Below are positions 29,717-58,020 of a DNA stretch of 64,000 nucleotides, piece after piece; positions within the stretch are counted from its first letter, which is position 1; every line of letters starts with the position of its first letter. This DNA comes from Gekko japonicus. Taxonomy: Eukaryota. The stretch spans positions 862,150 to 926,149 of the forward strand of contig NW_015172563.1 in assembly GCF_001447785.1 (NCBI RefSeq), given 5' to 3'. The position numbers were made by a program, and so were the translations under genes. The notes below the pieces were generated by a model. That model did not search any database, was not told the DNA's origin, and worked only from the letters and a program-made list of their open reading frames with translations.

Positions 29717-29839
29717 ATGGAAATGTTATCTGCTGGAAAAAGAGACTTAAGCCAAAGCAGCGAAATGGAACTGGTGAATTTACAAACAGATGAAATTGTT
29801 AAGAGGAGTACTCTTCAGAAGTATAAGATACTCTGTGCA
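29717..29839 (+). CDS. ENPP3: ENPP3 coding exon 1 (cytoplasmic tail, ...EIVKRSTLQKYKILCA)
   Basis: VKRSTLQKYKILC resembles the ENPP3 juxtamembrane VKKNTLKKYKIAC; phase-0 GTAAGT donor. Start codon ambiguous (29717, 29723 or 29765). Confidence 0.88.
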
Positions 29840-31054: not shown

Positions 31055-31479
31055 TCATTCAGCCTGCTCAGCCTAGAGGAAGTTGACAGGTTGCTCCTAA
31101 CTGTACGCCCTACCACTTGCTCCCTTGATCTGTGCCCTTCATGGCTAATTAAAGCTGGCCATGTGGGGTTTCAAGATGTCCTACGGGAGATTGTCAACAA
31201 GTCCCTCTTGGAAGGGCGGTTCCCTGGAGCACTTAAGGAAGCAGTGGTTCGCCCTCTCTTGAAAAAGCCATCCTTGGACCCGACTGAATTGGCAAACTAT
31301 CAGCCAGTCTCCAACTTGCCCTATTTGGGCAAGATAATAGAGATGCCTATGACCATACAGTTACAGGGCTTCTTGGATGACACTTCCACCTTAGATTCCC
31401 TTCCAGTCTGGCTCTCGCCCGGGACGTGGGACAGAGACGGCACTGGTGGCCCTCACAGATGACCTCAGGAGACGTCTGT
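31055..31479 (+). mobile_element. L2 LINE, part left of the Gypsy insertion
   Basis: ORF 31091..31462 (TTCSLD...LKEAVVRPLLKKPSLDP...NYQPVSNLPYLGK) is the pre-RT region of L2 ORF2. Confidence 0.88.
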
Positions 31480-31870
31480 TGTTGTGTTCTAGGGTTTATT
31501 CCTATGCTGTTTGAATTGCCCTCTAGTATCCTAGTTCTCTCATTCTATTGGCTGTCTAATACAGACCACCCATTGGTCCTGAAGCCACCTAAGGTAACCA
31601 CTGCTTAGGTCCAGTCAGACCTTGTGTATATAGTTACATTGTATATAGTTTACTGTTGAAATCATATAAGTTAAGTGTTGCTCTGTGCAGATCAGATCAG
31701 AGCTGAACAATGTCTTGAATAAAAGCCTTATTATGGTTTATCGTCTCCTGCCTGTCAGTACTTTAAACTGGCGGTGAAGATGGGATTCCAGGCCTGACCG
31801 AACGGGAGATCACTCTCTGCCTGCCCAGACTGAAATAACTAAGGGCGCCTAGAGCTAAATCACTACGGGC

Positions 31871-33013
31871 ATGGCATTCAAGGGCCATATCGAACCGTTT
31901 GACCCCAAGGTTGGGAACTGGGAATCCTACCTCGACTGTTTTGAATGCTTCCTCATAGCAAACAGTATTGAAGGAGACGATGTCTGCCGTGCCACTTTTC
32001 TAAGTACCTGCGGCCAGGCTGTATTCAACATTGCTCGGGACTTAGTAGCTCCATCCAAGGTACTGGAAACACCTCTCAGCATCATAATGACACGGCTCAG
32101 CGACTATTTCATGTCAAAGATGTCTGCTGCCATACATCAATGTGTTTTCCACCAATGGAACCAGAAAGAGGGCAAGTCTGTCACAGAGTACGTCACCGCA
32201 CTGAGAAGGGCTGCTCAAGACTGTCAGTTCCCAAATTTAAAATCAGTCCTGCTGGATTGTCTGCTCTGCGGCATCAGAGATGACAGCATCAGGTGAGTGC
32301 TTCTTTTACAAAAAGAACTCACTTATGAATTGGCACTCGAAGACGCGCTGCAAGTGGAGGCCGCCAATATTTATCTTCGCGAACTGCGACTGGGCGCTCA
32401 CACGTCATGCCACACCGATGCTGTTCACCACGGCGATACTGCTGACTCCTCTGTTTTTCAAGATGACCAATCAGAATTGTCTGATGACAGAGTCCACAGA
32501 ACGGGAGCCAACCAGAAGCCACGCCATTCTCAAAAAAGCCCGCAAAGGGGAGTATGTGCTGGTTGCAGTAGTGCGCATGCTCGCAGAGACTGTCAATTCC
32601 GCGACACCATCTGCTGTGCTTGTGGAAAAATGGGCCACCTTGCCAAAGTCTGCCGCTCATCACAAGGTCCTTCCACACCTAAAGTAGTCCGTCGTCCAGC
32701 AAGGGTTTCCGGAAAATCTCGCCAGTCCTGTTTCCTGTCTTTGCGGTCGTTCAATCGCAGGCTGCAATACAATAACAAAGCAAGTGCCTCAGAAGACTAC
32801 ACCAATCGCCTGTACATTCATCATGGTCTTCGCACTTGCCCCAAGATAAAGGTGACTGTTTTCCTCAAAGATCGTGCTTGCCAGATGGAGATCGACTCCG
32901 GCTCTGCACTGTCAATCGTCTCGTGGAACACTTTCCAACAAGTATGTCCCTGGTTCCCTGCACACCGTCTCCAGAAGTACAGCCTACAACTTTTCGATTT
33001 CCAGAGAAACTGA
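31871..33013 (+). pseudogene. Gypsy gag-protease (interrupted by TGA at 32294)
   Basis: Two zinc knuckles (CAGCSSAHARRDC; CACGKMGHLAKVC) and aspartic protease motif EIDSGS. Confidence 0.9.
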
Positions 33014-33149
33014 GTTCCTGTCGTCAGCATCATCCCCATCCAGGTCACGTAACTTGCTCGTTGTTGAAGGTCGCTGTATGAGCCTTATTGGTCTGGATTG
33101 GTTCACCGCACTCGGTATTGACATTATCAGCGTCAACCACACCAGTTAC

Positions 33150-35270
33150 AAAGATCCACCTGTCTCCCTCACCTTGAATCCTGTCGTCCAACCCATACGC
33201 CTCAAGCCATGGCGATGCCCCATCACTCTCAAGCCGCGTATCGACGAGTAGATCGATAAGCTGCTGGCTCAAGGTATCTTGGAGCCCATCCCCAATGCTG
33301 AGTGAGAAACTCCGATCATCACTCCAATCAAACCTGATGGTTCGATCCACTTGTGCGCGGATTACAAGTGGACCCTCAACAAGGCCCTGCAGCTGCATGC
33401 ATACCCGGTGCCTGTGGTAAGCCATCTTTTAGTGTCCATCTCCGGGGGCCAGGTGTTCGCCAAAATCGATTTAGCTCAGGCATACCAACAACGCCCTGTT
33501 GATGCAGTCACGGCCGAAGCTCAGACAATCGTGACACACCATGGTGCCTTCAAGTTGAACCGTTTACAATTCGGGGTAAGCGTTGCCCCTGGAATTTTCC
33601 AGGAACTAATGGAGTGCCTCCTGAAAGACTTACCCGGCGGCGTCCCTTATTTGATGATGTGTTGATAGCAGGGGCCTCTGACCTAGAACTGACTGCTCGT
33701 GTGCAGGAGGTCCTCTGCCGGCTGCAGGAGGTCAGTCTGCGGGTGAAAAAAGAGAAATGCGAGTTTTTCATCTCCACAGTCTAGTTGTTGGGGTTCCTCC
33801 TGGACAAAGATGGCATCCATCCTGCCCCGGACAAAGTTGCCGCAATCTGCAAGCTGCTCCCTCCGAAATTGAAGAAAGAGCTGCAGTCCTTTTTAGGACT
33901 CCTTAACTTCTATCACACTTTTCTGCCAAACAAAGCAGCTACAGCTGAACCNNNNNNNNNNNNNNNNNNNNNNNNNNNNNNNNNNNNNNNNNNNNNNNNN
34001 NNNNNNNNNNNNNNNNNNNNNNNNNNNNNNNNNNNNNNNNNNNNNNNNNNNNNNNNNNNNNNNNNNNNNNNNNNNNNNNNNNNNNNNNNNNNNNNNNNNN
34101 NNNNNNNNNNNNNNNNNNNNNNNNNNNNNNNNNNNNNNNNNNNNNNNNNNNNNNNNNNNNNNNNNNNNNNNNNNNNNNNNNNNNNNNNNNNNNNNNNNNN
34201 NNNNNNNNNNNNNNNNNNNNNNNNNNNNNNNNNNNNNNNNNNNNNNNNNNNNNNNNNNNNNNNNNNNNNNNNNNNNNNNNNNNNNNNNNNNNNNNNNNNN
34301 NNNNNNNNNNNNNNNNNNNNNNNNNNNNNNNNNNNNNNNNNNNNNNNNNNNNNNNNNNNNNNNNNNNNNNNNNNNNNNNNNNNNNNNNNNNNNNNNNNNN
34401 NNNNNNNNNNNNNNNNNNNNNNNNNNNNNNNNNNNNNNNNNNNNNNNNNNNNNNNNNNNNNNNNNNNNNNNNNNNNNNNNNNNNNNNNNNNNNNNNNNGC
34501 TCCATCGCCTTCTGGACAAATCAGCTCCGTGGGCGTGGGGCTGCCGGGAACAAGCAGCGTTCCAGGCCGTCAAAGCTCTCCTAGTTTCCACTAGGGTCCT
34601 CATCCACTAAGACAAAAGGAAGCCTTTCGTTATGGCTTGCAATGCGTCACCCTATGGGATCGGGACAGTCTTCAGTCACAGGCTGCCTACAGGACAGGAA
34701 GCTCCCATAACTTTCTACTCCAGGACTCTATCCTCAGCGGAGAGGAATTATGCCCAGATAGGCTGAGAGGCGTTAGCTATCACCACAGCTGTAAAAAAAA
34801 TTCCACGATTTCATCATCTATGGTTGTGAGTTCAAGATCGTCATTGACCACAAACCGCTGCTCGGCATTTTTACAAGAGATCGCCAGACTCCGCAGATCC
34901 TGTCGCCTCACATGATGCATTGGGCCGTCCTTCTCTCTGCTTATGACTTTACCCTGGTCCACAATCCTGGAAAGACCATCAGGCATGCCGATGCCCTCAG
35001 CCGCCTGCCGCTGCCAGAACAACACGAGGCCCCGATCCAAGAGGAACTGCTGCAGCCTCCACTCATGGTTGCCGATGTCGCTTTCTACACCACCTGGGAC
35101 CATACACTCAGCCGCCATCACCTGGCCCATGTGGAGGGGCTGGCTGCCCGAGAAGCTCGAGGTCGAATTCCAGCCTTTCCAGTCACACTCATCAGAACTG
35201 TCAGTGAGCAAAAGCTGTCTCCTCTGGGGAAATAGGGTCATAGTCCCTTCCCCACTAAGTGAGTTTTAGA
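33150..35270 (+). pseudogene. Gypsy reverse transcriptase / RNase H (stops, frameshifts, assembly gap)
   Basis: CADYK.TLN, FAKIDLAQAYQQ, RLQFGVSVAPGIFQ, frameshifted Y-DD, ELQSFLGLLNFY, HADALSRLP. Confidence 0.9.
33952..34498. other. Assembly gap (inside Gypsy pol)
   Basis: Run of N. Confidence 1.
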
Positions 35271-35280
35271 CACCCTAAAT

Positions 35281-36130
35281 GTGGGGCACCCCAGCATCGT
35301 GAAGATGAAGGCTATCACAAGAAGCTATGTGTGGCAGCCAGGACTGGACCAGCAAATCGAGTGCTGGGTCCAAACGTGTCAGCCCTGCCAGGAATCAAGG
35401 CCTGAAGCCCTATCCGTTCCAGTCCATCCCTGGGAGAAGTCGTGGGGACCATGGTCCCCCATCCACATGGACTTCGCTGGACCTTTCCAGGGCAGAACGC
35501 TCCTCCTCCTCCTCGACGCCTACTCAAAATGGTTGGAGGTATGCCCTATCTCTTCAATGACCACGGCTGTCATCACCCGCTGCCTGGAGTGGCTATTTGC
35601 CACATTTGGCCTTCCGGACCTCATCGTTTTGGATAACAGGGCTCAGTTCACCTCCACTGAGTTCCAGAGGTTCGCGGATGAGCAGGTTATTCGGCACGTC
35701 ACCTCAGCTTCTTTCCACCCAGAGACGAATGGCCAGGTGGAGCGCATGGTGAGGACCATGAAAGATTCACTTCGCAGACTCAGCGGTGGGAACTTCCTAG
35801 CAAACTTCACGGACTTCTTGTTTCATCAGCATTCTATGCCACACGCTGCCATGGGGAGGACCCCGGCGGAGCTCCTAATGGGATGCCAGTTGTCCATGTG
35901 CATGAGCTGCCTCCACCCGGACCTTGCATCGGACACCAGCCATGACCCCATCGTCTCAGGAATCACAAAGATTTTCGTGCCGGGCAACACAGTCTACACC
36001 TGCAACTACGGAGAGGGTCCTCACTGGGTTCCTGTTGTGGTTCTCCATTCGACATGGCCTCTCTCGTACGAGGTGGAGGACGAGGCAGGGCAGGTCTGCC
36101 GCCATCACCTGGCCCAGCTCCAACGTCATT
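35281..36130 (+). pseudogene. Gypsy integrase
   Basis: H..CQPC zinc finger; D (HMDFAGP), D (LDNRAQF), E (NGQVERM) triad. Confidence 0.9.
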
Positions 36131-36926
36131 GGCCGGCCCAGAGAGAAACTTTGCACTGTATCCCAGTTCCTGATGACCTGTTGCAATGCTCCCCAGTTCC
36201 TGTTCCCTGCTCTGTTCCCTGTCCGGGAAATCTCCCGTCCCAGCACATTGTCGGCGCTCAGGAGACGCGTCCCTCAGAAGACATCTGGCTGCCACCTCCA
36301 GCATGGGAGGATGATGAGCCACGAGAAGAGCCGTTCCAAATCAGGTCAGCTGAGCCCATTCCTCCCCCCTCGTTTGTTATGCCTGCTTGCCGCAGTGCAC
36401 TGTCGCCTGCTAGGGGTGCTGTGGCGTCTTGCCCACGAGTTGAGCCGGCACCTTGCCGCTCAGTCTCTGAACCCATTCCGGACTTTGACAGAGCTGATGA
36501 ACCCCCAGGGCACTGGGACTATGGACATGCCCAAGGTACTCCACGAGGAGGGCAGTCTCCAAGAGGTATGCCACAGCCACAGTGGTCTGGCCTAACAAGG
36601 CTATTTTGTTTAAACCGGGGGGGGGAGTGTTGTGTTCTAGGGTTTATTCCTATGCTGTTTGAATTGCCCTCTAGTATCCTAGTTCTCTCATTCTATTGGC
36701 TGTCTAATAAACACCACCCATTGGTCCTGAAGCCACCTAAGGTAACCAATTGCAGAGCTCTGCTTAGGTCCAATCAGACCTTGTGTATTGTATTACATTG
36801 TATATCGTTTACTGTTGAATTCATATAAGTTGAGTGCCGCTCTGTGCATATTAGATCAGAGCCGAACAATGTCTTGAATAAAAGCCTCGTTATGATTTAT
36901 CATCTCCTGCCTGTCAATACTTTAAA

Positions 36927-38408
36927 TCTGGATCGAGGTGGATCAGCAGTGCTGATGTTTTTAGACCTGTCAGCAGTGTTCGACACGGTCGACCATCAGC
37001 TTCTGATCCACTGACTCGCCGACACTGGGTTTCAGGGGCTGGCCTTGCAGTGGCTTGTCTCCTTTCTCCAAGGTCAGAGACAAAGGGTGGCAATAGGGGG
37101 TCAACTATCCCAGAGGCACCCACTAGAGTGTGGAGTGCCTCAAGGGGCTGTGTTTTCCCTGATGCTTTTAAATATCTATATGCGCCCCCTTGCCCAGATT
37201 GTCCGGAGGCATGGGCTGGGATGGCACCAGTATGCGGATGACACCCAGCTCTATCTGTTGTTGGGCGATCAGTCTGCCTCCAAACCAGAAGATCTAGACC
37301 GGGCATTACAAGCCGTGGCTGGTTGGCTTAGGCTGAGTCGGCCGAAACTGAATCCAATGGAGATGGAGGTCCTTTGCTTGAGCCGGGGCAGTCTGGGGGA
37401 AGGGATCCCGCTTCCGACCTTCGATGGGGTGGCTTTGGTGCCAGCACCAGAGGTTAGAAGTTTGGGAGTGCTCCTGGATGCTTCCTTAACAATGGAGGCC
37501 CAGGTAGCAGCCACTGCCAAATCGGCCTTTTATCATCTTTGACTGATCTGGCAGTTGGTTCCCTTCCTCGAACGCGACGACTTGGCAACAGTGATCCATG
37601 CAATGGTCACCTCAGGATTGGACTACTGTAATGCTCTCTACGTGGGGCTGCCCTTGTCCCAAATCCGGAAGCTGCAGCTGGTGCAAAATGCTGCAGCCAG
37701 GCTGTTGATATGACTCCCAATTTGGAAGCACATCCAGCTTGTGCTAAAGGCACTGCACTGGCTGCCAATAGCATACTGAATTCGTTTCAAGGAGCTGGTT
37801 CTTACCTTTAAAGCCAATTATGGTCAGAGGCCTACGCATCTGAGGGACCACCTTTCCCCATATATCCCCCAGAGAGCACTGCGTTCAGGGGCCCAGAACC
37901 AATTGGCCCTCCTGAGTCTTAAGGAGTCCAGGCTATCAACAACCAGGGCCAGGGCATTTTTGGTGGCGGCTCCATTCTGGTGGAATGAGCTCCCAGAAGA
38001 GAATAGGGCCCTGCGGAACCTCTTATAGTTCCACAGGGCCTGTAAAACAGAGCTCTTCCGCCAAGCTTTTGGAGCTGCCACCACCATTGAACATCATTAA
38101 AAACTTGTAGTTGAAGGGTAGGAAGCCCTGCTGCCTCTGGAATCCATAACATCAGCCTGTGCCAGCCGCCTGTAGGACACCTGGAGTAGACCTAGGAGCC
38201 GGTTATGAGTAGAAAGAACTAATATGGTTGCCATCGTGATTTAGCAACAACAATACCAGCACTTACTGTACTGTTAACTGGTTTTAGCATTATTTTAAAT
38301 GTTTACATTGTGGTATTGTAAATATACTTACTTTATGTAAGCTGCCCTGAGCTGGCCTTGGCTGGGAGGGCAGGGTATAAACTTGAGAAATAAATAAATA
38401 AATAAAAT
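36927..38408 (+). mobile_element. L2 LINE, part right of the Gypsy insertion (RT and 3' end)
   Basis: FLDLSAVFDTVDH, GVPQGAVF, QYADDTQLY; (TAAA)n tail. Confidence 0.9.
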
Positions 38409-41400
38409 CTGATCTCGCACCAAACTCCTTGTAGCAACATCATTCGGAAGTGTGTGTGTGTGTGGGGTCCTTCTGCATTCTTCCCCTTCACTCACCTGTT
38501 AGCCTGCAGCATAGCTGCTGCCCCTGTTCTCTCCTCCCTCAGCAGCCCATGGCTTATGTGGTGGGAGGCAGCAGTGGTGGCAAAGGCTTCTGATACTCTA
38601 CCCACATTTTTGCAGAGGAGAGGCAGTGATAGTGGGGTTGGTATCAGTGGCAGAGGGGCTGACCAGTTGCTCCTCTTTGCCCACATGCAACAGAGTAGAG
38701 GCAGCAGCAGCTCCCAGTCCTTCCCCCATCTACATCGTTGTGGAGGAAGGAGAGGGTGCTCCTACTCTTCCCTCTACCCCTCTTCCACACCTCTTGCTTA
38801 GTTAGCAATAGCAGCTCCCCTCCACATCCTCGGTCTCGTACCGGTACCTGCTGCAGCTGACACAGGTGCTTTGTCTGTGGAAACGCAGAACTATTTATGA
38901 GGAGTTTACCCCCTCTACTTTTTTAACTTTTAATTTTTTTTCTGTAAACCTGGGGGTGCCCCAAGTTTTAAAAATATTTGTTTTTTTCTTTACATGCCTC
39001 CAATCTACAGATTTAAGTATCTGCACATAGGCCATGAGGAGAATTAAATACATCACAAGTGGGAACCTACAAGAAATTTTCAGGATGGTACATGCCATCC
39101 CCCCACCTTTGTTTCCTTCCCCCTCCTGACTTCTTTGACAATCTTCCCCATCTCTTTCTCACCCCCTCCCTTTCTCTGTCAGCCTTTCCCCATTTCTCCC
39201 CCTCCTTTCCCTGACAATTCCCCCTTCTCTTTCTCCCGTACCCCTTCTCCATCAATCCTCCCCCTTTCCCTTCTCTTTCAGTATTTTCCCCATCTCTTTC
39301 CCCCTCCCTACCTTGACCTCCTTCTGGGCCACTAGGGCAGCCCTTCTTGGAGCAGCCCTTGCTCTGAGAGCAACAATGGCAGGGTCCTCAGGACTCGGAG
39401 CCACCACGTCAGTGGCAGGGCCCCCAGGAGCTGCCATGTTGATAGTAGGGCCCCCAGGAGCCAGCAGAGCATCCCTGCTGTGGCCAGGCCTAGAGCAGCT
39501 CCCAGATGCTGCTGCTGTCACTGGGCCTGGAGCAGTTCCTGGACACTGTGGCTGGGCTCAGAGAACTCCTGAACATCAGCAGGCCCTGGAATGGCTTCCA
39601 GACACCATCACCACTGTGGCTGGTCCTGGTGCAGCTCCCAGACACTGCTGGCTCTCATCATGCACAGATAACCAATCTTTTATTTTTGGAGGGATTTAAA
39701 CCTCCAATATATTTTTTTAAGTTTTCAGATTTCTCTGGAAAATTGGGTGTCTCACAAGTCTGCAGGACTATCTGTTTACAGTTGTTGTGTCTCTGATCCC
39801 CAGGTCACAGATTGGGCCACACGTGACTATTAGAATATAAATCATCTAATTTCAAACTGGACCATACAGACTGAATTGACAGATTTGCAAAATGAGCCTA
39901 GGATCAGATGCAGGGATTTCTCTACAAATCTGAAGGAAGTTCTTTTTAAAAAAAATTTCTACATAATCCTACAAAACTACACACTAAAATTACAGCTATA
40001 CAACAACCATATATGATAATAATTATATCTTAAGTCAAAGCTTTTCTCTTATTTAGGTTAAGAATAAAAATTCCATTCTATTATTTTGATATGCAAAAAA
40101 TTAAAATTATTGACAATGCAAGATTATGTAATGTAATGTAATATAAACATTTCTTCTAAAGTTTAAGCTAATTTTTTAAATTATAATAAAAAACCAAATC
40201 TGAAGGAAGTTCAAAGTTTGCAAAGAAATCTGAAATCTAAAAAAAAGAGGATTATTACTCCCTAAAATAATGTAAACAATACCTATAGTTTTAAGAAAAG
40301 AATACCCACTGAGCTCTCAGCAGGCCCATAGCCGGGGGGGGGGGGGCTGACAAAGGCAACACCCCACCCCAAACATGCCCTGCCCCTCCAAATAGCCTTG
40401 AAATAGGTCCCCTCATCAGTCATACCAAGGGCAGAGTGATCTGCCCCAGGTGCAAATAATTAGAAGAGTTGGGCTCCAGGAGCACCCAGTGCCAGTGAAG
40501 GCACTGGCAGCAGCAAAACAACAGAGGTGCTGGCTGGCCAGCCACAAAGGAACACGAACGGAACACAGTTGAGCCAAGGTGCTTGCCCGAGCAAATGTGC
40601 CCACCACTCCCATGTGCTCTTCAAGGCATTTTCAAGCCTCAAAACCTGCCCTGGGTGCTACCTGCCAGCTACCTGCCAGTTGGAAACACTCACTTGCTCG
40701 CTGCACTTGGCCTCCAGCTGCTACTCAAAGACAGCTAGGAGAAGGGTAACTTACTGCACCCCTTCAACTTGGTAAGAGGGGGGAGGAATGAATGAATGCA
40801 GTGGCTTACCAAGGGCTGGGTGGTGGTGTGGGGCGATTCACAGGTGATAAGGGGGTGCAAGCCAGTCCGGATCTGTGGCTCACTGAGAGGTGAAAGGGAA
40901 TCCCAGTGCCTCACTCTTGAGGAAATGGCAGCAGCTTGCCCAGCCTGGTACTCGCTTCCCTCCTGGTTCCACACGGGCTGTTACTGCTTTTCAGAGAGGG
41001 GTGGAAAGGGAGAAACAGATGGAAGGGCTGGAGTTGCGAACTGAGAAGGCAGAGTGAAAAGGAAAGGGGGGGGGGCCTGTCAAAGCAGCACTGGGGGTTC
41101 CCACTGAAGGCTGCTCTCAGGGTGAGCGATGCGTGGCTTTGCAAATGGGGAAGGTGATGGGAGTGCTGTGACTCTGATTCTCTGCCAGCACTCTTCCAGG
41201 ACAAGATGGGGGGGGGAGCGGAGGATTTTGCTTTTCCACCAGCCCCACAGTTTGGCAACTCCTGCATTTTTCTTTGCTCATCTTGGGGGAGGCATTCTGT
41301 CAGGCTGAAGTTGAAACGGGCCATTCCAGCAAGCACTGAGTAACCCACTTCCCTGTGTTTGGGGAAGGAGTTCTGTGCGCAGTCTAGCAGGGTTACGAAA

Positions 41401-42304
41401 TGCAGCCTGATTGTTGATGCCAATGGTTGATCTCAGCTCATTTTTTTCCAGTTTGTATCTTAATTGCCTTGTAACGTTTAAAAAAGATTTGCCCTTTTTA
41501 CGAGACATAAAGATAAACAATCCTATGCAGCTGTACTACAGTGCAGGTAAAATAGAGGCTGTATTTCTAAATAGGCATATTCGGAGGTCTACTTGGAAGT
41601 AAGTCCCATTTTATTCAATGTGGCTTACTCCCAGGAAACAGTTCATAGATAACAGCCTCAGTGAGACTGACCCAGTCCCAGAGTTAAACACACCACCTTC
41701 CTATTGATTTTAATAGGCAGATGACTCCTTCACTGTAGCCAATGGGAGTTTAGAGTACTTTGGTTTGCCTTGATTATGCCTGAGGTTGCTAGCTGGCCAG
41801 GAAAAGTAATGTCCTGTCCCTTTAACAAAGGTTTAACTAATGAAAATGGACAGTGCAAGTTTTTCATGGTATTACTTAAAATAACATCACCTGATATTTG
41901 CTGTAGATCCAACTAATATTAATTTGACACCTAGAGGGGCGATTTAAAAGTTGGTAACTAATTATGTCCATGTTAAGGACTGAGCTAGAATGCTAGTAGC
42001 CATCAAAATCATGGACATCTAACACATATTAAATATCTCTGTAATAAACCTGAAACATTTTTGTGTGATATACCACTTGACTTAGTTATTTAGAAGTATA
42101 AGCATGGCAGTTATGTACAGACATATAATGGGCTGCTCTCCACCATGCTAAACTGCCCCCTTAACAATAAAGTTTCCCCTCTAACAAAAAATTCTGCCTA
42201 CAGGCCTGGCTTTCAGTTGCCATTTTGGAGGTTTCTAGGCAACTACAACAATATTGCTAAGCCTTCCAAGCCTTGGTTTCTGAAATGCAAAGCCAGTGGG
42301 GAAG

Positions 42305-42662
42305 TGTTAAATAGTGGGTTTAACGCGGCAGAGGCGAAGGCAGAGTGATTTCAACAAGCAGCAGTTTATTGCATCTCAACAGGAATGCTTTACATGGGGC
42401 AACTGCCCTAACTATATACACCTAAGCCACTCCCAGGCCCCATGCGATTGGTGAGTTCAAATGGCCTACAGGCTCCAGATTGGCTGGCTGCCCCCAGGGG
42501 TCAATCTGCAGGCAGGCTCCAGGATCCTGCCTGCCTTTGTTCTGGGCTTCAAGCTCCAACTAGGTGGCCTGCCAGACAAGTCCAGGCATGCCTCCTTATG
42601 CTGGCTACTTCACCAGCAGCGGTTAAGCCTGAGTGGAAGATTGCACATATCCAGACATAACA
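42305..42662 (-). mobile_element. Solo LTR, 358 bp
   Basis: TGTTA...TAACA termini; perfect 5-bp TSD GGAAG; minus-strand CCAAT x2, TATA-like motif and AATAAA in LTR order. Confidence 0.85.
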
Positions 42663-43371
42663 GGAAGCATGTGTGGACAAAGACCCAAACAGCTCCAGAA
42701 AGGGTCTTATCCCATTCTTCTGCTGTGTCACCAGATAGAGGAGGACTTGTTGTGAACAGGCCCAGTGGCCACCACCAGAACCACCCACATCACTTGCACT
42801 GGCCTGATGGCCTCTGTGCAACTGGGGTTAGTCTGGAAGCATCAGCCGCTGATGAAAATAACTGCTTTGGAAGGTGGACTCCATGGCATTAGAACCCACT
42901 GAAGTCCTCCCCCTTCTCAAACCCCACCCTCCTTAGGATTCACCCCAAAAATCTCCAGGTATTTCCCAACCCAGAGCTGGCAAACCTACCACTGCTTCAC
43001 CCCATGTTTGTTACATTCTTGTTGATAACATTTATATGATAAACAAAAATAGTGTATTGGAGCTGCATGGCTTTTTTTTTTGGTGTGTCAATCAGAACAG
43101 CAAGCGCAGAAACTTAGTCGGTGTGGGGAGCCCTTTCGGGAAGAGAGACTTGAAGGATCAGAGTGACAATGTTAGCATTTTATAAACCTAAAGGATGATC
43201 TTTAGGGACAGCAGCACTTCTCCACAAATGATTCAGACTTCATGATTATTCATCAGGAGGCCATATATTTCTGGTTAGCTCACTAACAGTGTCATCTTAA
43301 ACAGAGTTGCACCCACTTAAGCACACTTACACCTTTCTAAGCCTATTGACTTCAATGGACTTAGAAGGGTA

Positions 43372-44498
43372 TGTGGCAGAATGGGCCTGCTCCGGCCTTC
43401 AGGCCCTATTCCACCCTGCCCTCCAAGGTTTTCCCAACACCTGGAGAGGCTTTTCTCTCTCTCCGGTAATCCATAACCACCACCTGACCTTTTTTAGGAA
43501 CTCCCAGTTTCCCTTCCAAGCTCTGAGGCCTTGCCTCTGTGTTTCCTGCTACCTAGTGCCTGGTCACCATGGGGACTATTTACTGCCTTATGCACCCCTG
43601 GAGGAATAGCCACTTGGCAACTGACTGCCTTCCCCCTGGCGCTCCTTTCAAAATAGTGTGTCCAAGATGGTGGAGGTCTATGTGGTACAGAGAACCACTA
43701 CCAGCATCAAAAGTTATAAAGTATTTATTAAAGAGAAAATGTTCACAAGCATACTTTTAGCCTTCAGAGGACGGCGGAAGACAGGAGGGCCTGGCGGGAG
43801 ATGATCCATGGGGTCGCGAAGAGTCGGACTCGACTGTGCGACTGAACAACAACAACATACTTTTAGCACAGCACCAGTTTGAGCAAGGGATTCAAACGAA
43901 AGGGGTAAAATGCAATTCCTATGTCCCTTTCTCAATTCATGTCCTATTAGATGTTAAAATATAGGACAGGCTCATTAACTTTGGAAGTTACAGATCTCTA
44001 CAGAGTTTCATTACTTTGAAGCTTCCTTCAGCTGTCCAGGCCAACACATGGCTAATGGCTGCCTCCCCCAGATCTCAGAACTCAGTTAAGAGTTCTGTCT
44101 GCTCTGATGGACTCAGCACAAAGGAGACCTTCCTCCTTGCTCCCCTGAGTTTTATCACCTCTCTTTTCTCCACCCATTGACCTGGTCAGACTGAATCAGA
44201 GAAGCTTTCCCTGGAGATTCTTCTTGGAGTTCCTTCCTGAAGTCTCTGTAGTCTTCAGTTCCTCCAAATCTCTGTTCCCTGCTTGAAGGTGGGGGGGAAG
44301 ACTGGACCCTCCTATTGTCTCCAGCTAGACCTATTAGCATTTCTTAAGAGGTAGCTGAGGTGATCCTGGAAAGCCATTGACTGACTTCCTCCTCCCTGCT
44401 TGTTCTCTGCCCAGAGAGGGGAAAAAAAAACTTTTAAAAACACAAAGTGAAGGTTTTGTTCATTTCAACTTCCAAAGGAAAAAAATCATTTCTTCACA
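43372..44498 (-). mobile_element. Solo LTR (~1.1 kb) inserted in a small MITE
   Basis: TGTG...CACA termini; TSD GGGTA/GGATA; splits a TTAGAAGGGT...AACTCT..GGATTGCACTG MITE; minus-strand AATAAA near 43724. Confidence 0.65.
43762..43855 (+). mobile_element. RTE-BovB 3' fragment nested in the solo LTR
   Basis: (CAA)n tail; 12-bp TSD CATACTTTTAGC. Confidence 0.88.
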
Positions 44499-44785
44499 GG
44501 ATATAACTCTGGGATTGCACTGTAAGTTTTTGTACACATTATTAATCAGATAATCAAGAGCTCCATGTTACTCTAGTATTTCTGTCTCTATACTTGTTCC
44601 CACACTCTGCATCCAACACCTGCTCTGAACTTCAAAGCCATCACTCAGTGCCAGCCTAGTAGGCTGGACACCAGCAGTAACTCCTCCAAAAGGATGAACT
44701 ACATTCTCCATTTGAGGGGTTTTGAGCCATATTGCAGCATAAAGTGTTCTGCTGCACCACCAAGTTAAGCAGTCATTCTGTGCCC

Positions 44786-44824
44786 ATGGGTGGCATGCCT
44801 AGAAATGAAGCCATATCTGCCCAG
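44786..44824 (+). CDS. Candidate alternative first coding exon of ENPP3 (MGGMPRNEAISAQ)
   Basis: Two in-frame ATGs then a perfect CAG|GTGAGT donor in phase 0, the phase exon 2 requires; no transcript evidence available. Confidence 0.3.
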
Positions 44825-45358
44825 GTGAGTAAATGGTGACTATAAGCATGGTCTGTATTAAAGACAGCATCATTTTGTGTAGTTTTACTGAAGTTAGGTG
44901 TTGTTCAGGTACAGGATATACTTGTAGTCCTTTATATTAGAGGTTAACATGAAGAATAAGTTGGAAGCTTGGTGTGCTGTAGGAATTAATTGTTCATTGA
45001 TTCTTGAATTATGTTTTCAAATTGATATTTGCTTTGTGAGCTTATATAAACAAACAGACAAACATAATACCTCTATTGCAAATGCACAATTAATGCCATT
45101 TTGAAGGCAATTTATTGAGGTTTAGTTCTATAATGATAGAACTGATAGACATTTGGCTTTTCAATACAGTATACGGGTCAAATATGACCAGGAAAACTAG
45201 AATCAACAAACTTTGTTTCTGTGGGGACAAAATCCCATGCTTGGATTGGGTCTTATTGGTGAGAATGTATTTTGGATTTGAAGATAGTTTCAGAGGGTAG
45301 ATGTTTTGGTCTGCAGTAGAATAGCTAGATTGGAGTATAGTAGCACCATGGAGACCAA

Positions 45359-45702
45359 TAGGGTTGCCAGACCCCCCAGTGAAGGTGGCCCCCCGCTGTC
45401 AGACCCTGTCCCTCAGCTACCTATCAGCTGGCCAGCGGGGGGGACTTACCTGGAGAAAGAGAAAGGCCCAGGCCTTGCTGCTGAAATCACATAGGAAGTG
45501 ATGTCATCACACCAGCGACATCCAGGCAACGCTCTGATATTTGGCAAAAACTCTATGGTAGAAGCCAGTTTTACCATAGAGTTTTTGCCCAAATACTAGA
45601 GCATCACTTGGACGTCACAGCATGATGACATCACTTCCTGTGTGATGCCAGTGGCAAGATCTGGGCCTTTCTCTTTCTCCAGGTAAATCCCCCCCCACCC
45701 CA
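45359..45702. mobile_element. Palindromic hAT MITE
   Basis: Starts TAGGGTTGCCAG; perfect TSD GAGACCAA; internal ~260-bp hairpin. Confidence 0.8.
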
Positions 45703-45740
45703 GAGACCAACAAGAATTCCAAGGCATCAGCTTTTGAGAA

Positions 45741-45954
45741 TAGTGTTGCCAGGTCTGGGTTGGAAAATACCTGGAGACGTTGGGGGTGAATCTGGGAGAG
45801 GGTGGGGTTTGGGGAGGGGCCTCAGCATGGTATAATGCCATACAGTCCACCCTTCAAAGCAGCCATTTTCTCCAGGGGAACTGATCTCTGTCAGCTGGAG
45901 ACCAGTTGTAAAAGAGGGAGATCTCCAGGCCCCACCTGGAGGCTGGCAACGCTA
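45741..45954. mobile_element. hAT MITE (family of 18893-19321)
   Basis: TAGTGTTGCCAG...CTGGCAACGCTA; degenerate TSD TTTGAGAA/TCTGAGAG. Confidence 0.8.
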
Positions 45955-46568
45955 TCTGAGAGTCAAAGCTCCTTGGAACTTTGACTCTCAACAGCTTATA
46001 CCCTGAAATTCTGATTGGTTTCTAATGTCCTACTGGTCTCGAATTAGAACTTCATCTACTTCCACACTGACTTCTTTGCCCATTTTATTGTTTATGTATT
46101 TATCCATGTTGAAAAAGAGTTAAGTTGCAAGATCCTAGTTATTTAGTTGTTTTTAACTGCCCCCAACTTGTTTGCATCTGACTACATCCTTTAATCCTCT
46201 GGGTTGGATCATACCATATTGTTCCATTAGCTGAAGGTGCCTTGTAGTAGAGGAATACAAGATGCATCAACGCAAGAGCATTATATTAGGAAGAGGCACC
46301 TTGTGCTGGAGAAACATGCAGATGTGGATAGAACAAAATGGTACAGTCCAAACTAAAGAGAATTTCAGTGTAATCATTAAGAAATTAGTCTCAAGGTGTC
46401 TGGATTTGGGGAGAAACCATAGTTCAGAGGTAGAAGATGGTCCCAGGTTCGATCCCCTCCCATCACCATTTGGAGAGAATATATTACTTCCAATCTGATG
46501 ATGCCATTTGTTGACAACCTATATACAATAGATAACTTTTGCCTTATTGTATTTGGCTTTTTCAACAG

Positions 46569-46647
46569 GTTCTTTTTGCTTCTTTAGTGATTGTATCTCT
46601 TGGACTAGGTTTGGGACTTGGACTGAGGAGATCAGCACAACCTCGAG
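46569..46647 (+). CDS. ENPP3: ENPP3 exon 2 (VLFASLVIVSLGLGLGLGLRRSAQPR; TM/signal-anchor), 79 nt
   Basis: Diagnostic LGLGLGLGL motif; caacag acceptor, GTATC donor. Confidence 0.94.
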
Positions 46648-48527
46648 GTATCTTTATAATATTCCCAGTTTTACATAATGTTTTCAAAATTCTTACAAAG
46701 ATGTATCTTAAGTTTCACTAAGAAGGTGGACCTGTATCTGGGCTGCAATATTTTAGACTGCAGGTGGGGCTTTCTTTGACTGAATGCTCCTCCACACAAA
46801 TCCCTTTCTCTGATATCTAGTTTGTAAACCCAGGAAAGCATCTTTATAATGGAATATGTTTGTAGTCCACTGCAATGATTATTTTAGGTATCACCTGCAT
46901 TTTCTGCATTGTCTTTCCTTTGCAATCCACTTTCTGTATTCTTCACAGCATACCTTGCTTTAGATAGTTTGTTGTTCTCACTGTTCTCTAAATTTTGTAA
47001 TTATTGTTCAAACATCATTATCTTATGCTGTTTGATTGTACTGTTATATATCCTGTAACCCACCTTGAGTCTCAGTGGGAAAGGCAGACTATAAATCAAG
47101 TAAATTAAATAAAATTAAACAAAGTGAGGGGACTTGTTTGGAAGAAGGGATATTTCCTAATGCCAGTCCCCATCTATAACCTGAAGTACACCCAGACACT
47201 GGTTTTCCACTTGTAAGAACTTGGCTACAAATCAACCCACAAAAAAGGAGATTACATGCATCTTTTAGGTTTGAGCTCATAAAACTGAGCCACCAAGCAT
47301 TCAATAAACACTTAAATAAGTTGGTTTTGATTGTTCTGTTTTTTCCATTTCCCATTTATTAAAAGAGGGCAGAATTGCCAAAATAACACAATAGCAATGG
47401 GTTATGACAGCTAAATGGAGCTTCTGTGCTTCTGAATATCAGATTCTGGGAACAAACACTTCCTGTTTATGAACATTTAGAAGCATCTGGAATACTGGAG
47501 TAGATGAACTTTTGATCTAATTCAGCCAGGCAGGTTATGAAGATCAAGTATGGCATGGCTACATTCCAATGAATTGAGGTAAAACCCATTATTCAGAGCT
47601 CATTAAAAAGGGTATCCGCTTATATATGGGAATACTGAAGCCAGATAAAAGAACATGTTTTCATTGTGAATATTGTTTGGTACAAATACATAATTTACCA
47701 TCCAAGGAAGGACATGATATTTTTTTTGTTTAACTTTCTGTGGATTCCATGTTCTGTTTATAAAGCTGTACAAGTATAAAGCTGGACAAATGTATCTTTT
47801 TGGACTCATTTTTCACTTAGTTGAGAAGTGTCAAGTAGAATTTGCAATTAATGGAAATATATGATCCTGTATATTAATTTGGTTGCGGCTAGTTTAAATT
47901 ATGAAAGATAACAGAGGGCAGTGGGTGCCTGCCCCCAGTTCAGAATTATATGTAAACTATGATCCTATTCAGTGAATGTCAATTGCCAAAATTAGGTTGG
48001 ATCTTACCAGTCTGTTCTACTGACACCATGTTCCACAGATAAAGCCTCCTCCACAGCTGGAAAGCCTTTTGTGTTGGCAGAAAGTGTGTTGTGCCAGGGC
48101 CCAGAGGAACGTGCCAGCACCAGCTCAGGTGATTTAGGGAAGCCTACACAAGTTAACCATAAAATGTTATGTTCTGAACACATTCTGCCAAAGGCCTCAT
48201 TAGTAAATGTGTAGATGAAAGGTAAGGAACCAGTCCTTCAGGTGCTGCATACAAGCTAGGGTCATGTGTATTTTTGCTGTGGTGGTATATGTGAGTTCCA
48301 CACATGTGGAACTCATGCATCTCACTGCATGGAAGATGTACACAGAAGCAATCAACTTGACATCTTTTGTGACTGTTCCTATGAATTTATAAGTCACTTT
48401 TATAGACCACTGGGTAGAACCATCATGAGAGAGAGAGAGAGGCCACATGTGCTTGCGCATTATGCTCTGTGTGGAAATATCTGCTCACATTTAGGTCACC
48501 ATTAATTATTTTGGGTTCTCTTTTCAG

Positions 48528-48650
48528 TCAGCTGCAGAAGTATTTGTAATGAAACATTCAGTGGAAAAACGATTGGCTGTAGGTGTGATCATAAATGCAC
48601 AGAACATCAAGCCTGCTGCTGGGATTATGAAACTACCTGTATTGAACCAA
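48528..48650 (+). CDS. ENPP3: ENPP3 exon 3 (somatomedin-B domain 1: VSCRSICNETFSGKTIGCRCDHKCTEHQACCWDYETTCIEP), 123 nt
   Basis: 8-Cys SMB pattern; tttcag acceptor, GTAGGT donor; phase 1-1. Confidence 0.95.
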
Positions 48651-49734
48651 GTAGGTCTCTCTTTCCTGCATAAATGATTTTTATTGTAGACTGAATCTTA
48701 ATGCTCAGGGCGGTGGGGACTTGGACCACCTGTCAGTGATATCAACACTTGGAATCAGGGAAACAGAAACGTCTCATAGCACAGATTGTGTGAACAGGTT
48801 AAGTAACAGAACAGGTTTGTAGGCTTGTTCCATCCCAGATCAAAATGATCCAGGTTGTACTATGGTACAAAAAGGACATATTTTGCTATTGCAAACCTTT
48901 GTTATTGTTCACTACATAGGTTACTTTTGTTATTGCATTTAGTTCCAGAGAAGTTGTTCTTTCCAGGTAAGCCTGGATACAATGCAGTGAAATGTAGTGC
49001 TCCTCTCCAGATCCAGACCTGACTTGGGTCAGCTGCTTCCATAGAGCTTATTGTAGCAAGGGCCAGAACAACCATTTTGGTTGCCATACGAATGCTGCCA
49101 AAACAGTCTTTCCACAATGAATAATCCTAATCCTGGCATTAATGTTGACAAGTTGGCATCATATCCTATACTCATCCAGAGGGAAGGAAATAGCAGCCAA
49201 GCATCCCTCCATCTTGCCTGGATTCAGTTCCATCTGAGGACTCCTTCCCTTCAGTGCTGAGGTCATGCATTCCCCTAGGTTTAGAGAAAGTAGCCATGCA
49301 TTCATCCATGCTTAGGAGGACTTCATATTGTGGAGGTGCCTTCCTTTATCCTTTGTAATGGACATTTATATTGGACTTTAAATGCCGTTTACAATTTTGA
49401 GTGCCAGATGTTGTCTGAAAAGCATATGGGAACCAACCAACCAACAAATAAAGAAGTTTTTAATGTCTCCATATCATTTCATATTTGGTATTGCCAGTGA
49501 GGGTGATGTGGAGATTTATAGCAAGAGGCAAGTTATATGGCGGCAAATATTACTGCTAGTGTAGGGATTGTCCTTTCTGAGCTTCTTTAAAAACCATTTC
49601 AGCTCTCTTCATGAATGTCCAAGATCACTATTAGTATACAAGTGCAGAAGTGGCTGTATAATCAAGGCATGTTGATTTTTTCCAACACTCTGCCATTATA
49701 AAGGCCGAAATGCTACTCATCATACAATCAAGAC

Positions 49735-49838
49735 GTTTTGCGCCACTGGTCTGAGGTTTATAAGACAAAAGAAGAATTAAAATAGTTAGTTTTGCGCCAC
49801 TGGTCTGAGGTTTATAACACAAAAGAAGAATTAAAATA
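49735..49838. repeat. Tandem duplication, period 54 bp
   Basis: GTTTTGCGCCACTGGTCTGAGG... at 49735 and 49789, one substitution. Confidence 0.95.
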
Positions 49839-50661
49839 ATCTCAAATATTTTAAGTGAAAAGCTGCCATCTTAACTTCTGGATTGGGTGACAAATACAAG
49901 CATGGGGCTTGATCCAGACTTCCATCAGTGGAACAGAACTGCCCTGTCTCCCTTCTCCCCCTGCAGCCCACTGATCTCCACAAAGTCCTGCTCCTGGGAG
50001 ACAGGAGGAATGATATGATGGGTTTGTAGTGGGAAGGGAGAACTGGCAGAAATTGTCAGTTTAGCTGGGAGAAATTGGGGGGGAGGCATGACTTGGTGTA
50101 CCATCATCATGCTGGCACAAAATGACATCTTTAGATGCCATAGCATTTACAAAATGTCAGAGTACGGGCAGGCAAAAAGCCAACACACTGATGGTATAAT
50201 GATACAACTGAAGTATAAACCAAACATGCTACACACACACACACCCTTTAGAAAGAAAGCAAAATACCTAAAGTTGCCAATTCTAGGTTGGGAATTTCCT
50301 GAATATTCCGGGGTGGAGCCTGGGGAGGTGAGAGACCCCAACTCATATCTGTATTCTGGAGGCCAGCTGTATTTCTAGGAGATCTCCAGGGCCCACCACA
50401 AAGTTGGAAATTCTAAGCAGACCATTCAGTTGCTGCCACCTGTGGGGACAGTGTCAAAGAAGATCACATCTGCACATTTAACCTGTATAAAAACACCCAT
50501 CCCAGCTTGCTCCTGGGGGAATATTTCTAGAGGAATAGATGCTTCTTCATGGGAATAATTCTGTTTCCTGTGAATCTTCAGTTTCCTATTAGGAATTCTT
50601 GACATGGATCATTGTAGGAAGTGTTAATCCATAGTTATTAAAAGCAATTTCCTTTCTGTAG

Positions 50662-50787
50662 CTCAGAGCTGGTCTTGCACTAAGTCACGCTGTGGTGAGA
50701 CACGAATGGCTGGAACCTTGTGCTCTTGTTCTGAAGATTGCTTGGAGAAGAGAGACTGCTGCACAAACCACAAAAGTGCTTGCAAAG
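50662..50787 (+). CDS. ENPP3: ENPP3 exon 4 (SMB domain 2: [42 protein letters not shown]), 126 nt
   Basis: 8-Cys SMB pattern; ctgtag acceptor, GTGAAG donor. Confidence 0.95.
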
Positions 50788-51388
50788 GTGAAGGGAAATG
50801 TTCCAAAGCATGTTTATATAGTTTTAACTGCCTTTCCAGAAACACTTATTGATCCAATTCCCGATAAAGTAAAATGGCTGCATAATTTTTTAAAAAGTCT
50901 GTGTATAAAGTAAACCTGGCTATAGGAACAGAAATAGGATTGTGATAGCATTGCTTTCATTTGATGAAGTTCTTTTCTGAATGTGAAGCTGCACTGAAGG
51001 TTGAGAGGTGTTAGGTGAGGCTACCTTAATGTTTGAGTGGGGTGGAGAAACATAAGTAGGTGCAACATCTCTCTTAATCAATCTACTACTCTTGTCTCCG
51101 GTTTTGAATTTGTTTCAAAAAATTGACAATTGACAACAGACAGTGTACTTTAAAAGTTATTTCAGACAGCTGGTTGTTCTGTTATATTTGCTGAGTTTTT
51201 CATTCTGGGGGACTAGCAAACCTGCAAATACTTTGCTCTTCAGTAATGTATTTTTACATACATCTTAACAACCAGAGTGGCTGGCAACAAATGTAAACCT
51301 GTCTGCACCCAGGAATTTCAGAGAGCTCCCAACAGATTTTCTAAATGTTAGCTTTTCCCAAGATAGCATTTCCAACGTTTGTTAAGGC

Positions 51389-54321: not shown

Positions 54322-57300
54322 TTTGTTATATAAATATGCACAAATGAAATGTTATCTGGAAGAGATTTACAGAACAATCCTAAACAATTTTATCCCCTTC
54401 TGAGTTCACTGAGCTTAGAAGGGGGTAATTCTGCTTAAGATTGCACTATTAAGTGTCTTCCTTTCACATTTTCTTTTCTTTTTTTAAATCTATGTATTAG
54501 TTTTCAGATAAACAAACACACAAAGACATATATATATATTTACACACTTCGCAATAATCATATCTGGATTAATCAATTAATTTTACATTCACGATAATAA
54601 AATCTAAATTAAGAGGTTGGTTATACTTCATTACCATGTCAAAATATCCTTATCCCATCCTTTATCATATATTACAAGGTCTTACAAATTGAACTGGCTA
54701 GCAATTTTATAATAGATCAGAGTTTCAACTATTATGGTATAATTACTGTTTGCTACTGAATAGTAGGCTTGCCAAGTCCCCCCGGGGGGCGGGGAAACCC
54801 CCGCCCCAGAGGCCCGTTCCCCACCACCAGCGGATCGGGCCCCGGGGGGAACCCCACCCCGACGTGCGTGTCACCTGGAAGTGACGCGACCACGCCGGGC
54901 ACGCTGGGGGCGGGGCCACGGTCATCTATGGTGTACAACATCATGAGACATGGTTGTAATGTCCAAAGCTTCTATGAACCTTCTTTTTTCCATGCTCCCT
55001 TCCAAAGACTTCATGTGATATCCTGACCAGATATTTGTGATGACAGATGTAATTACCATCAATTCCTGAGTTTTCAATGCTGTCCTTTAAAACACAATTG
55101 AAATGTAAATCAAACAATTTCCAAATGTATTAGGAAAAGCACCTTTGGGAATGAGAATTACTGAAGAAAAATGGTGGTCAGGGGAAAGGATAAGTGAACA
55201 CACAGCCCCTTTTCCCTTTTCCACTTCAAATTGCCCCCACCAGAAGCTGCTTTCCTTAGGATAAGGAGCCATCTGGGTCTTGGTACGTAACATATATTTA
55301 ATAATATGTAACATATATTTAATAATAAATGGAATCAGGTGCTAGGTATTTCTATACTTCTAACAAATGTTAATCTTTGTGAACAGATGGTATTGGTAAT
55401 TTATAGTGGGTGGTAGCCTACAATTCCTTTCTAATAAGTAAAGAGTCTTGCCTGGAAGGTGGAGTTCTTTCGCCCAATTAAGAGTCCTTATGCAGCAGGA
55501 AGAAGCCATAGAATTCAACCCAGTGCATTTTTTTTTTTGTACTAATGCATACTAAGAAATATAACCTGTATTCAATCGGGCTTATTCTTTGGCATGGGCA
55601 CAGAGGATTGAAGTTTGGTTGTCAACCAAAGTACACATGCTTGGAAACAAACTCTTTTTATATCTATGGAATTACTTCTAAGCTGAATGTGTACACAATT
55701 CTATTTTTTTGCCATGGTGTGAAAAATCAAGTAGGGCAGAATTGAATACTCATTTCAACAAACACTTAAATAGAGAAAAAAGGGAGAAGCAACTTTCATA
55801 AAGAAAAGTGAAAAGGTTTGAATTTTGCATATATGTATTAAGATATTTCCTTGATTATATAAATGTACTGTTACCCTGAACTAGAGGTCAGAAGCCAATG
55901 GTCACATTTTATATTGGTATATTTTTTGTACGAACAGTTTCTAAATGTGTTAATGAGTTATGAGAAGATACTGTGGAAAGAGATTATCTGTTATATGAAA
56001 GGACCAAAGTGGTCAAGAAAGTGCATACCTTTGTGTATCACAATCATTTATGGGGCAAATATGATAACGTCAAGTGTAGTTAAATCTATTGACTCATGTA
56101 TGTGTGTAAGTGCGTCTATTAAGAGAGAGAGTGGGCTACACAGAATCTTTGCAGCAAATTTACCATCCAATTTAAATAATATGGAGAAGCACTTCTTTGG
56201 ATAAGAAGTGTTGGCTGATTTTACCAGTTTTATTCATGAAGTCCAGTGGCAGTTAATCAAATTACAACCTCTCCTAAATGGGACTGCAAGAGTGAAAGTG
56301 CTGCTCCTTTGCCAGAAAGTTAGGGCATGTTTCTTCAGATTCAGGGTGTTTATGAACCTTGAACAGGCAAAAGTTATTAGGTAACAACAGGAAACTGACT
56401 TCTAGGTTTACGCTTTTAAAAATAAGCGTCCATAAGGTAATATGAAAGCTTGGCATTCTAAACATGTTCATCCTAAATGCACAGTGTACTGCACTAGTTC
56501 TCTACAGATAAGATTGTCACACTGTGCTATCTCAGTAAGGAGTGTTGTTACCTTGTGTAAGAAGGTGTACCTCATTAACAATCAGGCGGGTAACTTTGGG
56601 GTACGAGCCGTAAAGACTCTGGTGCTGTGCCCCCATCATTCATTTCAGTGACGCTTTAAGAAAGCCCTTCCTGAGCTTAAATTAAGGGAACCTGTGCACA
56701 GTCCCTGGTAGACTATGTACTTAAGGTGCTTCTTTGTGGATTGTATTTTCTGTGACAGTTCTGTGTTAAGTCTTGGCTGCTGCACTGCCCAGTGGTTTTC
56801 CACATTATCATGCTGTGGAATTGTTGTTGTTGTTCAGTCACACAGTCGAGTTCAACTCTTCGAAACCCCATAGACCACATCACGCCAGGCCCTCCTGTCG
56901 TGCTCCGAAGTTTGCTTAATTTCATGTTCATTGCTACGATAACACTGTCTAACCATCTCATCCTTTGCTGTCCCCTTCTTCTTTGACCTTCAATCTTTCC
57001 CAGCATCAGGGACTTCTCCAGTGAGTGCTCCCTTCTCATTTGGTGGCCAAAGTATTTGAACTTCTGCTTCAGTATCTGGCCTTCCAAGGAACAGTCAGGA
57101 TTGATTTCTTTTAGGATTGAGTGATTTGATCTCCTTGCAGTCCAGGGGACTCTCAAGAGTCTTCTCCAGCACCATAATTCAAAAGAATCTATTCTTCGGC
57201 GCTCAGTCTTCCTTATAGTCCAACTCTCGCAGCCATACAGTACTACTGGGAATACCATTGCTTTGACCATATGGACATTTGTTGGCAGGGTGATGTCTCT

Positions 57301-57744
57301 ACTTTTTATTATGCTGTCAAGGTTTGCCATTGCCTTCCTCCCAAGGAGCAGGTGTCTTTTAATTTCATGGCTGCAGTCACCATCTGCAGTGATCTTGGAT
57401 CCCAGGAACATGAAGTCTGTCACTGCTTCCTCAACTTCTCCTTCTATTTGCGAAGGAGTGATGGGGCCAGATGCCATGATCTTAGTTTTTTTGATGTTGA
57501 GTTTTAAGCCAACCTTTGCGCTCCCCTATTTTACTTTCAGCAAGAGGCTCTTGAGGCCCTCTTCACTTTCTGCCATTAGAGTGGTATTATCTGCATATCT
57601 GAGGTTGTTGATCTTTTCCCCAGCAATCTTAATTTTGGCTTCTGAATCATCCAGTCTGGCATTTCGCATGATGTATTCTGCATATAAATTAAATAAGCAA
57701 GGGGACAATATACATCCTTGTCGTACTCCTTTTCCTATGCTAAA

Positions 57745-58020
57745 GGAGAAGAAGAAGAGATTGGATTTATACCCCGCCCTTCACTTGGAGTCTCAGAGTG
57801 GCTTACAAACTCCTTTCCCTTCCCCTCCCCACAACAGACACCCTGTGAGGTGGGTGGGGCTGAGAGAACTCTGACACAAACTGCTTTTTTTCAAGGACAG
57901 CTGTGCCAGAGCTTGTGACTGACCCAAGGTCACATCAGCAGGTGCAAGTGGAGGAGTGGGGAAGCAAACCTGGTTCTCCCAGATTAGAGTCCGCACACTT
58001 AACCACTACACCAAACTGGC
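57745..58020 (-). mobile_element. Squam3-like SINE nested in the BovB RT region
   Basis: Near-identical to 12764-13034; interrupts the BovB RT just before GVRQGC. Confidence 0.88.

Follow-up and report, generated by a model that had tools for sequence, protein, structure and literature searches.

Within intron 1 of the gecko ENPP3 gene, in a 64,000-nt stretch of the Gekko japonicus genome that we refer to as the window, lies a 13-codon open segment (positions 44786-44824) that on balance we read as an alternative first exon of the gecko lineage, joined in frame to exon 2 in such a way that the membrane anchor would become a cleaved signal peptide and the enzyme would be secreted. The segment probably represents a real gecko isoform, likely secreted and convergent with snake-venom phosphodiesterase (svPDE). 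The design is known from snakes; the gecko isoform is already present, unnoticed, in public gene models.

The ENPP3 gene and its canonical exons

The gene in the window is G. japonicus ENPP3: exon 3 is 100% identical to the species' RefSeq protein (P0001), the Pfam domains follow the SMB-SMB-PDE-NUC architecture with ENPP3 as the best match, and cobra svPDE is the top PDB match for exon 3. The following canonical exons were placed, with all positions given in window coordinates.

29717..29839, + strand: coding part of canonical ENPP3 exon 1 (translation; RNA contigs; match of 34/41 to Paroedura X2)
46569..46647, + strand: ENPP3 exon 2, encoding the hydrophobic segment that is the anchor in the long form and the signal peptide in svPDE (translation, RNA contigs)
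48528..48650, + strand: ENPP3 exon 3, somatomedin B domain 1 (RNA contigs, protein matches)
50662..50792, + strand: ENPP3 exon 4, somatomedin B domain 2 (join 48650 to 50662; contig piece to 50792)

By translation, canonical exon 1 encodes the 41-aa cytoplasmic tail and the first 4 residues of the anchor, and canonical intron 1 measures 16,729 nt, with a GT..AG join from 29839 to 46569 that is confirmed by RNA contigs. An earlier, sequence-only reading of this DNA had called the tail basic; its net charge is 0 in G. japonicus, and the description holds for the membrane-proximal part alone. P0001 begins at residue 17, the third Met in the reading frame of exon 1. Since RNA contigs cover the region from 29659 and other geckos conserve the peptide encoded from the earlier ATG at 29717, the P0001 model is probably 16 residues short.

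A candidate first exon upstream of exon 2

44786..44824, + strand: candidate alternative first coding exon, 13 codons, with ATGs at 44786 and 44795 (translation; best match in the window for the N-termini of three geckos)
44825..44830, + strand: consensus splice donor GTGAGT, phase 0 (sequence)

The candidate exon runs for 39 nt without a stop from the ATG at 44786 and ends at CAG/GTGAGT, with the GT at 44825 in phase 0; the intron from there to exon 2 would measure 1,744 nt. The sequence-only reading had described this 13-codon exon, its donor, the second ATG, an interval of about 1.7 kb to exon 2 and a CATAAA word upstream of the ATG, and all of these are present, the word at 44738-44743, where its first base precedes the ATG by 48 nt. 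The arrangement is of the svPDE type, a short exon in intron 1 that is in frame with exon 2 and bounded by canonical GT-AG sites. The stretch 44775-45200 has a single occurrence in the genome. An internal cassette exon was considered and rejected, given that no pyrimidine-rich acceptor can be seen upstream, that an in-frame stop lies 21 codons before the ATG, and that the models of other geckos begin within this exon.

Perfect MAG/GTRAGT donors occur twice in the 16,729-nt intron, and an in-frame ATG lies within 90 nt of the one at 44825 only. When the intron was resampled 300 times under a first-order Markov model, 7.7% of the resamplings contained one or more perfect donors with an ATG, and 1.0% did so when a TATA-like word was also required; with a looser donor definition the values were 76% and 4.7%. 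Because the criteria were picked after the fact, the motif alone is suggestive, and ATG, donor and TATA-like motif are by themselves no proof of an exon.

The other perfect donor, at 32293, is without an in-frame ATG and lies inside a broken LTR-retrotransposon of intron 1 (window ~31860-36830), which contains an open frame with integrase domains at 35263-36825 and appears Gypsy-like by reading of its frames. LINE-like reverse-transcriptase remnants were recognized by inspection of translated frames at ~36830-38030 and 57125-57871.

Homologous N-termini in gecko gene models

A protein search with residues 40-200 of P0001 found 268 sequences, of which the best 120 of 268 were listed; 30 clusters were examined, the large ones in part. 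Among the 283 proteins collected, the exon-2 block is present in 206, and in 20 a Met start precedes it by no more than 20 residues. For three of the five other gecko species listed, an ENPP3 model opens with a peptide homologous to the alternative exon and joined to exon 2. The Paroedura picta model XP_077208909.1 (isoform X1) begins MSRNQAIFAQ and continues directly into exon 2; that of Heteronotia binoei, XP_060095440.1, the sole model for the species among the matches listed, begins MAGVSRNQAIFAQ, followed by exon 2; and the Sphaerodactylus townsendi record A0ACB8GC83 (UniRef), a 144-aa fragment, begins MAGIPRIQAIFAQ, again followed by exon 2. Conservation in other lizards, which the sequence-only reading had named as a check, was thus found in models of three genera. 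The gecko species compared belong to two gecko families.

Identity to the window peptide is 7/10 for Paroedura, 8/13 for Heteronotia and 8/13 for Sphaerodactylus, with no indels, and every difference can be explained by single base changes. When these three N-termini were scanned against all six frames (~127,900 positions), the alternative exon gave BLOSUM scores of 32, 39 and 38, versus 22, 26 and 22 for the respective runner-up. Between species the peptides are 62-90% identical, compared with 56-83% for canonical exon 1 (window versus three geckos). The frame and the donor-proximal Gln are conserved in four gecko species, and the exact 13-codon length and the sequence A-I-F-A are each kept in three. 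At positions 2, 8 and 11 the window peptide departs where the other geckos agree, changes that could reflect relaxed constraint. Paroedura X1 and the normal-exon isoform X2 are identical beyond the first exon and differ in that exon alone, a pattern characteristic of alternative first exons.

Other models lack the short start. Both Eublepharis isoform models use canonical exon 1, with no homologous short start, the Euleptes model has a start unrelated to the alternative-exon peptide, and the Sphaerodactylus RefSeq models use canonical exon 1. The G. japonicus RefSeq model found also uses exon 1, and the short isoform was absent among the G. japonicus records returned. A short-protein search with the Heteronotia N-terminus yielded 0/40 candidates at E 0.01; the search was weak, as it also missed the known 144-aa Sphaerodactylus fragment (P0128). 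The supporting gecko records are automatic gene models named ENPP3 or uncharacterized, carry no remark on secretion, and could be mere predictions; isolated odd N-termini are also present in mammal and bird ENPP3 models. In annotation, paired isoforms usually have transcript alignments behind them, and pipelines may take models of related species as input.

RNA evidence in G. japonicus

Runs X1-X8 were treated as RNA by guess, none being recorded as RNA, and the informative runs come from two studies. Exon 2 was found in five same-species runs (X1, X2, X3, X4 and X6), and the canonical join of exon 1 to exon 2 was present in 4/4 of runs X2, X3, X4 and X6, at depths of 2.9-4.85. The junction 44824 to 46569, for which the sequence-only reading had proposed an RNA search, did not appear in G. 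japonicus: it was seen in 0/4 runs covering both exons, over the complete table of joins, and in 0/5 runs with exon 2, at low depth and in contigs, which tend to lose rare transcript forms. The contig of run X1 consists of exons 2-3-4 preceded by 86 letters that map nowhere on 44000-51200 and therefore do not come from the candidate exon. Raw-read runs X9, X10 and X11 (~3, 12 and 12 in 100 of each read) covered neither the candidate nor exons 2-4 and so were uninformative. The canonical exon is the form seen in these G. japonicus samples. In snakes, the two ENPP3 forms are described as nearly mutually exclusive between tissues (PMC10121219), and a blank in a few gecko tissues is therefore expected under either reading.

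RNA coverage in every run examined is dominated by a short high-copy repeat, found at window positions 45741-45954 and at several further sites, which is probably why word shares in the run search were small.

The missing junction is what would be expected if the ATG and donor were a neutral, inherited pair that gene finders pick or copy and that, in G. japonicus at any rate, is not or is no longer in use, a reading that we consider unlikely. Because the donor at 44825 is the only perfect one with an ATG across 16.7 kb, predictors would converge on this exon, and pipelines may borrow the models of related species. The Sphaerodactylus record, moreover, is a piece of a broken model in a species whose RefSeq models use exon 1, and the pooled amino-acid identity of ~70% is, by our estimate, little above the neutral expectation at such distances. 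A neutral pair fits less well with Paroedura, where the short form is listed beside an exon-1 isoform and such pairs normally are transcript-based, or with the retention of frame and Gln across the four species and of exon length in three of them.

Membrane anchor or signal peptide

An in-frame splice from the alternative exon to exon 2 would replace the cytoplasmic tail. From exon 2 onward the alternative form would match canonical type II membrane ENPP3 (CD203c), with its pair of somatomedin B domains and its phosphodiesterase and nuclease-like domains. The canonical form differs in having a tail of 41 residues and an apolar run of 22; with the swap the N-terminal part would shrink to 10-13 residues, the size of a signal-peptide N-region, and the purely apolar run to 18. 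The membrane anchor would thereby likely become a cleaved signal peptide, and the enzyme, a nucleotide pyrophosphatase/phosphodiesterase, would be soluble, with its ectodomain unchanged.

In a hydropathy comparison, the 18-residue apolar run of the short form equaled that of svPDE and ended in a Gly-x-Gly site, which in gecko exon 2 is in register with the svPDE cut site; by analogy, cleavage is predicted after the 18th codon of exon 2. The listed chain of mature cobra svPDE (P0172) begins at the equivalent Leu after the Gly repeat. Purified cobra svPDE is described as being without tail and anchor (PMC10121219). In snake svPDE a 5-residue exon is followed by the same exon 2, and a 23-residue signal was predicted for it (PMC6891707). 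The uncharged stretch is longer in the gecko form, 23-25 residues versus 18 in svPDE, because the gecko exon puts A-I-(S/F)-A before the Gln.

Cleavage of signal-anchors is reported to be governed by hydrophobic length and flanks (PMC2115136, PMC2115504), and in the model type II protein described in PMC2115136 cleavage was partial with at least 16 but fewer than 20 hydrophobic residues and absent with 20 or more. By that measure the uncharged stretch, which is not under the 22 residues of the long form and includes the A-I-F-A kept in three species, would leave room for a product that is still membrane-anchored in type II orientation and differs in its shorter tail, in which case the exon would chiefly act as a second promoter or alter sorting. 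That outcome seems to us rather improbable: the invariant Gln limits the apolar run to the svPDE length, and the Gly-x-Gly site is identical to that of svPDE. The short N-region likewise fits a signal peptide. If the exon is used, we therefore expect with reasonable confidence that the short isoform would be secreted.

An old repeat and a putative promoter

44545..44795, no strand assigned: right-hand portion of an old dispersed repeat of no assigned class, holding the putative core promoter and the first ATG (genome copies)
44738..44743, + strand: CATAAA, putative TATA-like word inside the repeat (sequence)

The repeat is present in at least 39 other places (104 candidates, 40 scored), and 24 other copies were fetched for comparison. 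They are ~66% alike over long matches and share a right end near 44788, with matches extending to 44795-44800 in two copies (L014 and L002); other copies run at least 200 nt further left, and several bear an ATG at the element's end. CATAAA occupies the same column in 0/24 other copies, CAGAAA is found in 6/24, and G replaces the window's T in 16/24, some rows of the comparison no longer being homologous at this column; the word thus probably arose in place by a point change. An initiator-like TCATTCT at 44773 lies beyond the ~30 nt that is usual between TATA and initiator. No Rfam family was found on the element in six loci, no Pfam match in seven stop-free stretches, and no terminal inverted repeat. 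Close to one of the copies, a tRNA-like match over the Rfam cut-off (L022:79-150) is probably a SINE head. We infer that a tissue-restricted promoter and the start codon may have come from the end of this old repeat, and the remaining codons and the donor from the adjoining unique DNA.

Comparison with snake svPDE and origin of the exon

The sequence-only reading had described svPDE as ENPP3 with a swapped first exon and the exon-2 block as its signal, a mechanism that is correct (PMC10121219). As described in that study, svPDE-E1a and E1b are likewise short ATG exons in ENPP3 intron 1, with a putative TATA upstream, a GT-AG splice to exon 2, and the same exon-2 hydrophobic block and Gly-x-Gly. 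The promoter word of E1b likewise lies within a repeat and apparently arose in place; E1b, however, is wholly inside its repeat, whereas the coding part of the gecko exon is mostly outside (PMC10121219). The svPDE first exons comprise 5-7 codons, while the gecko exon has 10-13 codons of unrelated sequence and a longer uncharged stretch, and svPDE is known from the venom gland and as purified protein, the gecko form from sequence and gene models.

At the protein level, the gecko peptide is identical to the snake first exons MIQQK, MIMQK and MRCKK at 0-1 of 5 residues, and homology to E1a or E1b was not found. E1a is reported as present in snakes except Typhlopidae and svPDE as limited to snakes; the non-snake sample comprised four families, with genomes of Shinisaurus, Varanus, Pogona and Anolis, and the sample table holds no gecko, nor does the word occur in the accessible text (PMC10121219). 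With so few matching residues, shared ancestry is a poorer fit than a separate origin, and the simplest reading is that the gecko exon is likely convergent with svPDE and independent of both E1a and E1b. Between the two histories that the sequence-only reading had left open, a soluble isoform that predates venom or one that arose separately, the comparison thus points to the second. G. japonicus is a non-venomous lizard outside Toxicofera, and geckos are not known to have a venom gland.

Descent of the gecko exon and snake E1a from a squamate ancestor, by which the secreted form would predate venom, appears very unlikely. In its favour are the shared intron, phase and acceptor, the age of the repeat beneath the exon, an R-N-Q triplet that precedes the snake start in a Crotalus model (P0141) but is shifted by three residues, and an older Anolis model ending I-F-x-Q (3/7 to Heteronotia). 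Against it stand the near-absent identity to the snake exons and the reported restriction of E1a to snakes other than Typhlopidae in a study that covered Shinisaurus, Varanus, Pogona and Anolis (PMC10121219); the Anolis peptide could be acceptor-tract read-through, the window tract also ending F-x-Q.

Other short starts were also noted. Pseudonaja models (P0159, P0167, P0161, P0165) show MIMQK-type and MRCKK-type starts, their assignment to exons being a guess; E1a is reported to be silent in elapids (PMC10121219). Alligator XP_059569075.1 (X3, P0194) and Rhineura XP_061479840.1 (X2, P0014) have other short first exons, of 7 and 18 residues, that are unrelated in sequence; both are single-species models and are the same as the normal isoform from exon 2 on. 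Short starts in the older Anolis model, Elephantulus, Ochotona and a Protobothrops cDNA were discounted as single records and possible artefacts.

In the literature searched, which left most subscription papers out of scope, we found no report of a secreted-form ENPP3 exon outside snakes and no relevant publication on gecko ENPP3; bioRxiv 10.1101/006031 contains no PDE or ENPP terms. Human ENPP3 has been reported in uterine fluid (PMC5036034) and a retroelement-derived alternative ENPP3 promoter in kidney tumours (PMC12060413), in passages that mention no signal-peptide exon.

A possible physiological role for secreted ENPP3

We raise as a tentative possibility that exon 2 is a latent cleavable signal that short first exons have unmasked repeatedly in reptiles, in geckos, on two occasions in snakes, and possibly also in the amphisbaenian Rhineura (X2) and in Alligator (X3), with an ordinary physiological role for the secreted form and venom svPDE as one recruitment of it. 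The repeated re-invention of secreted ENPP3 has been interpreted as reflecting a need in venom, and the secreted isoform seen in male rattlesnake kidney was left unexplained in the accessible part of that study (PMC10121219). If the wider possibility is true, secreted ENPP3 would have an ordinary role, for example in male kidney or reproductive secretions, and svPDE would be no snake invention. The gecko exon would also be a second case at the ENPP3 locus of a repeat end becoming a promoter. A conserved, separately born gecko equivalent would show that such an exchange of first exons comes about easily and is of use even in the absence of venom, and would make the gecko a non-venomous model for finding what soluble ENPP3 does.
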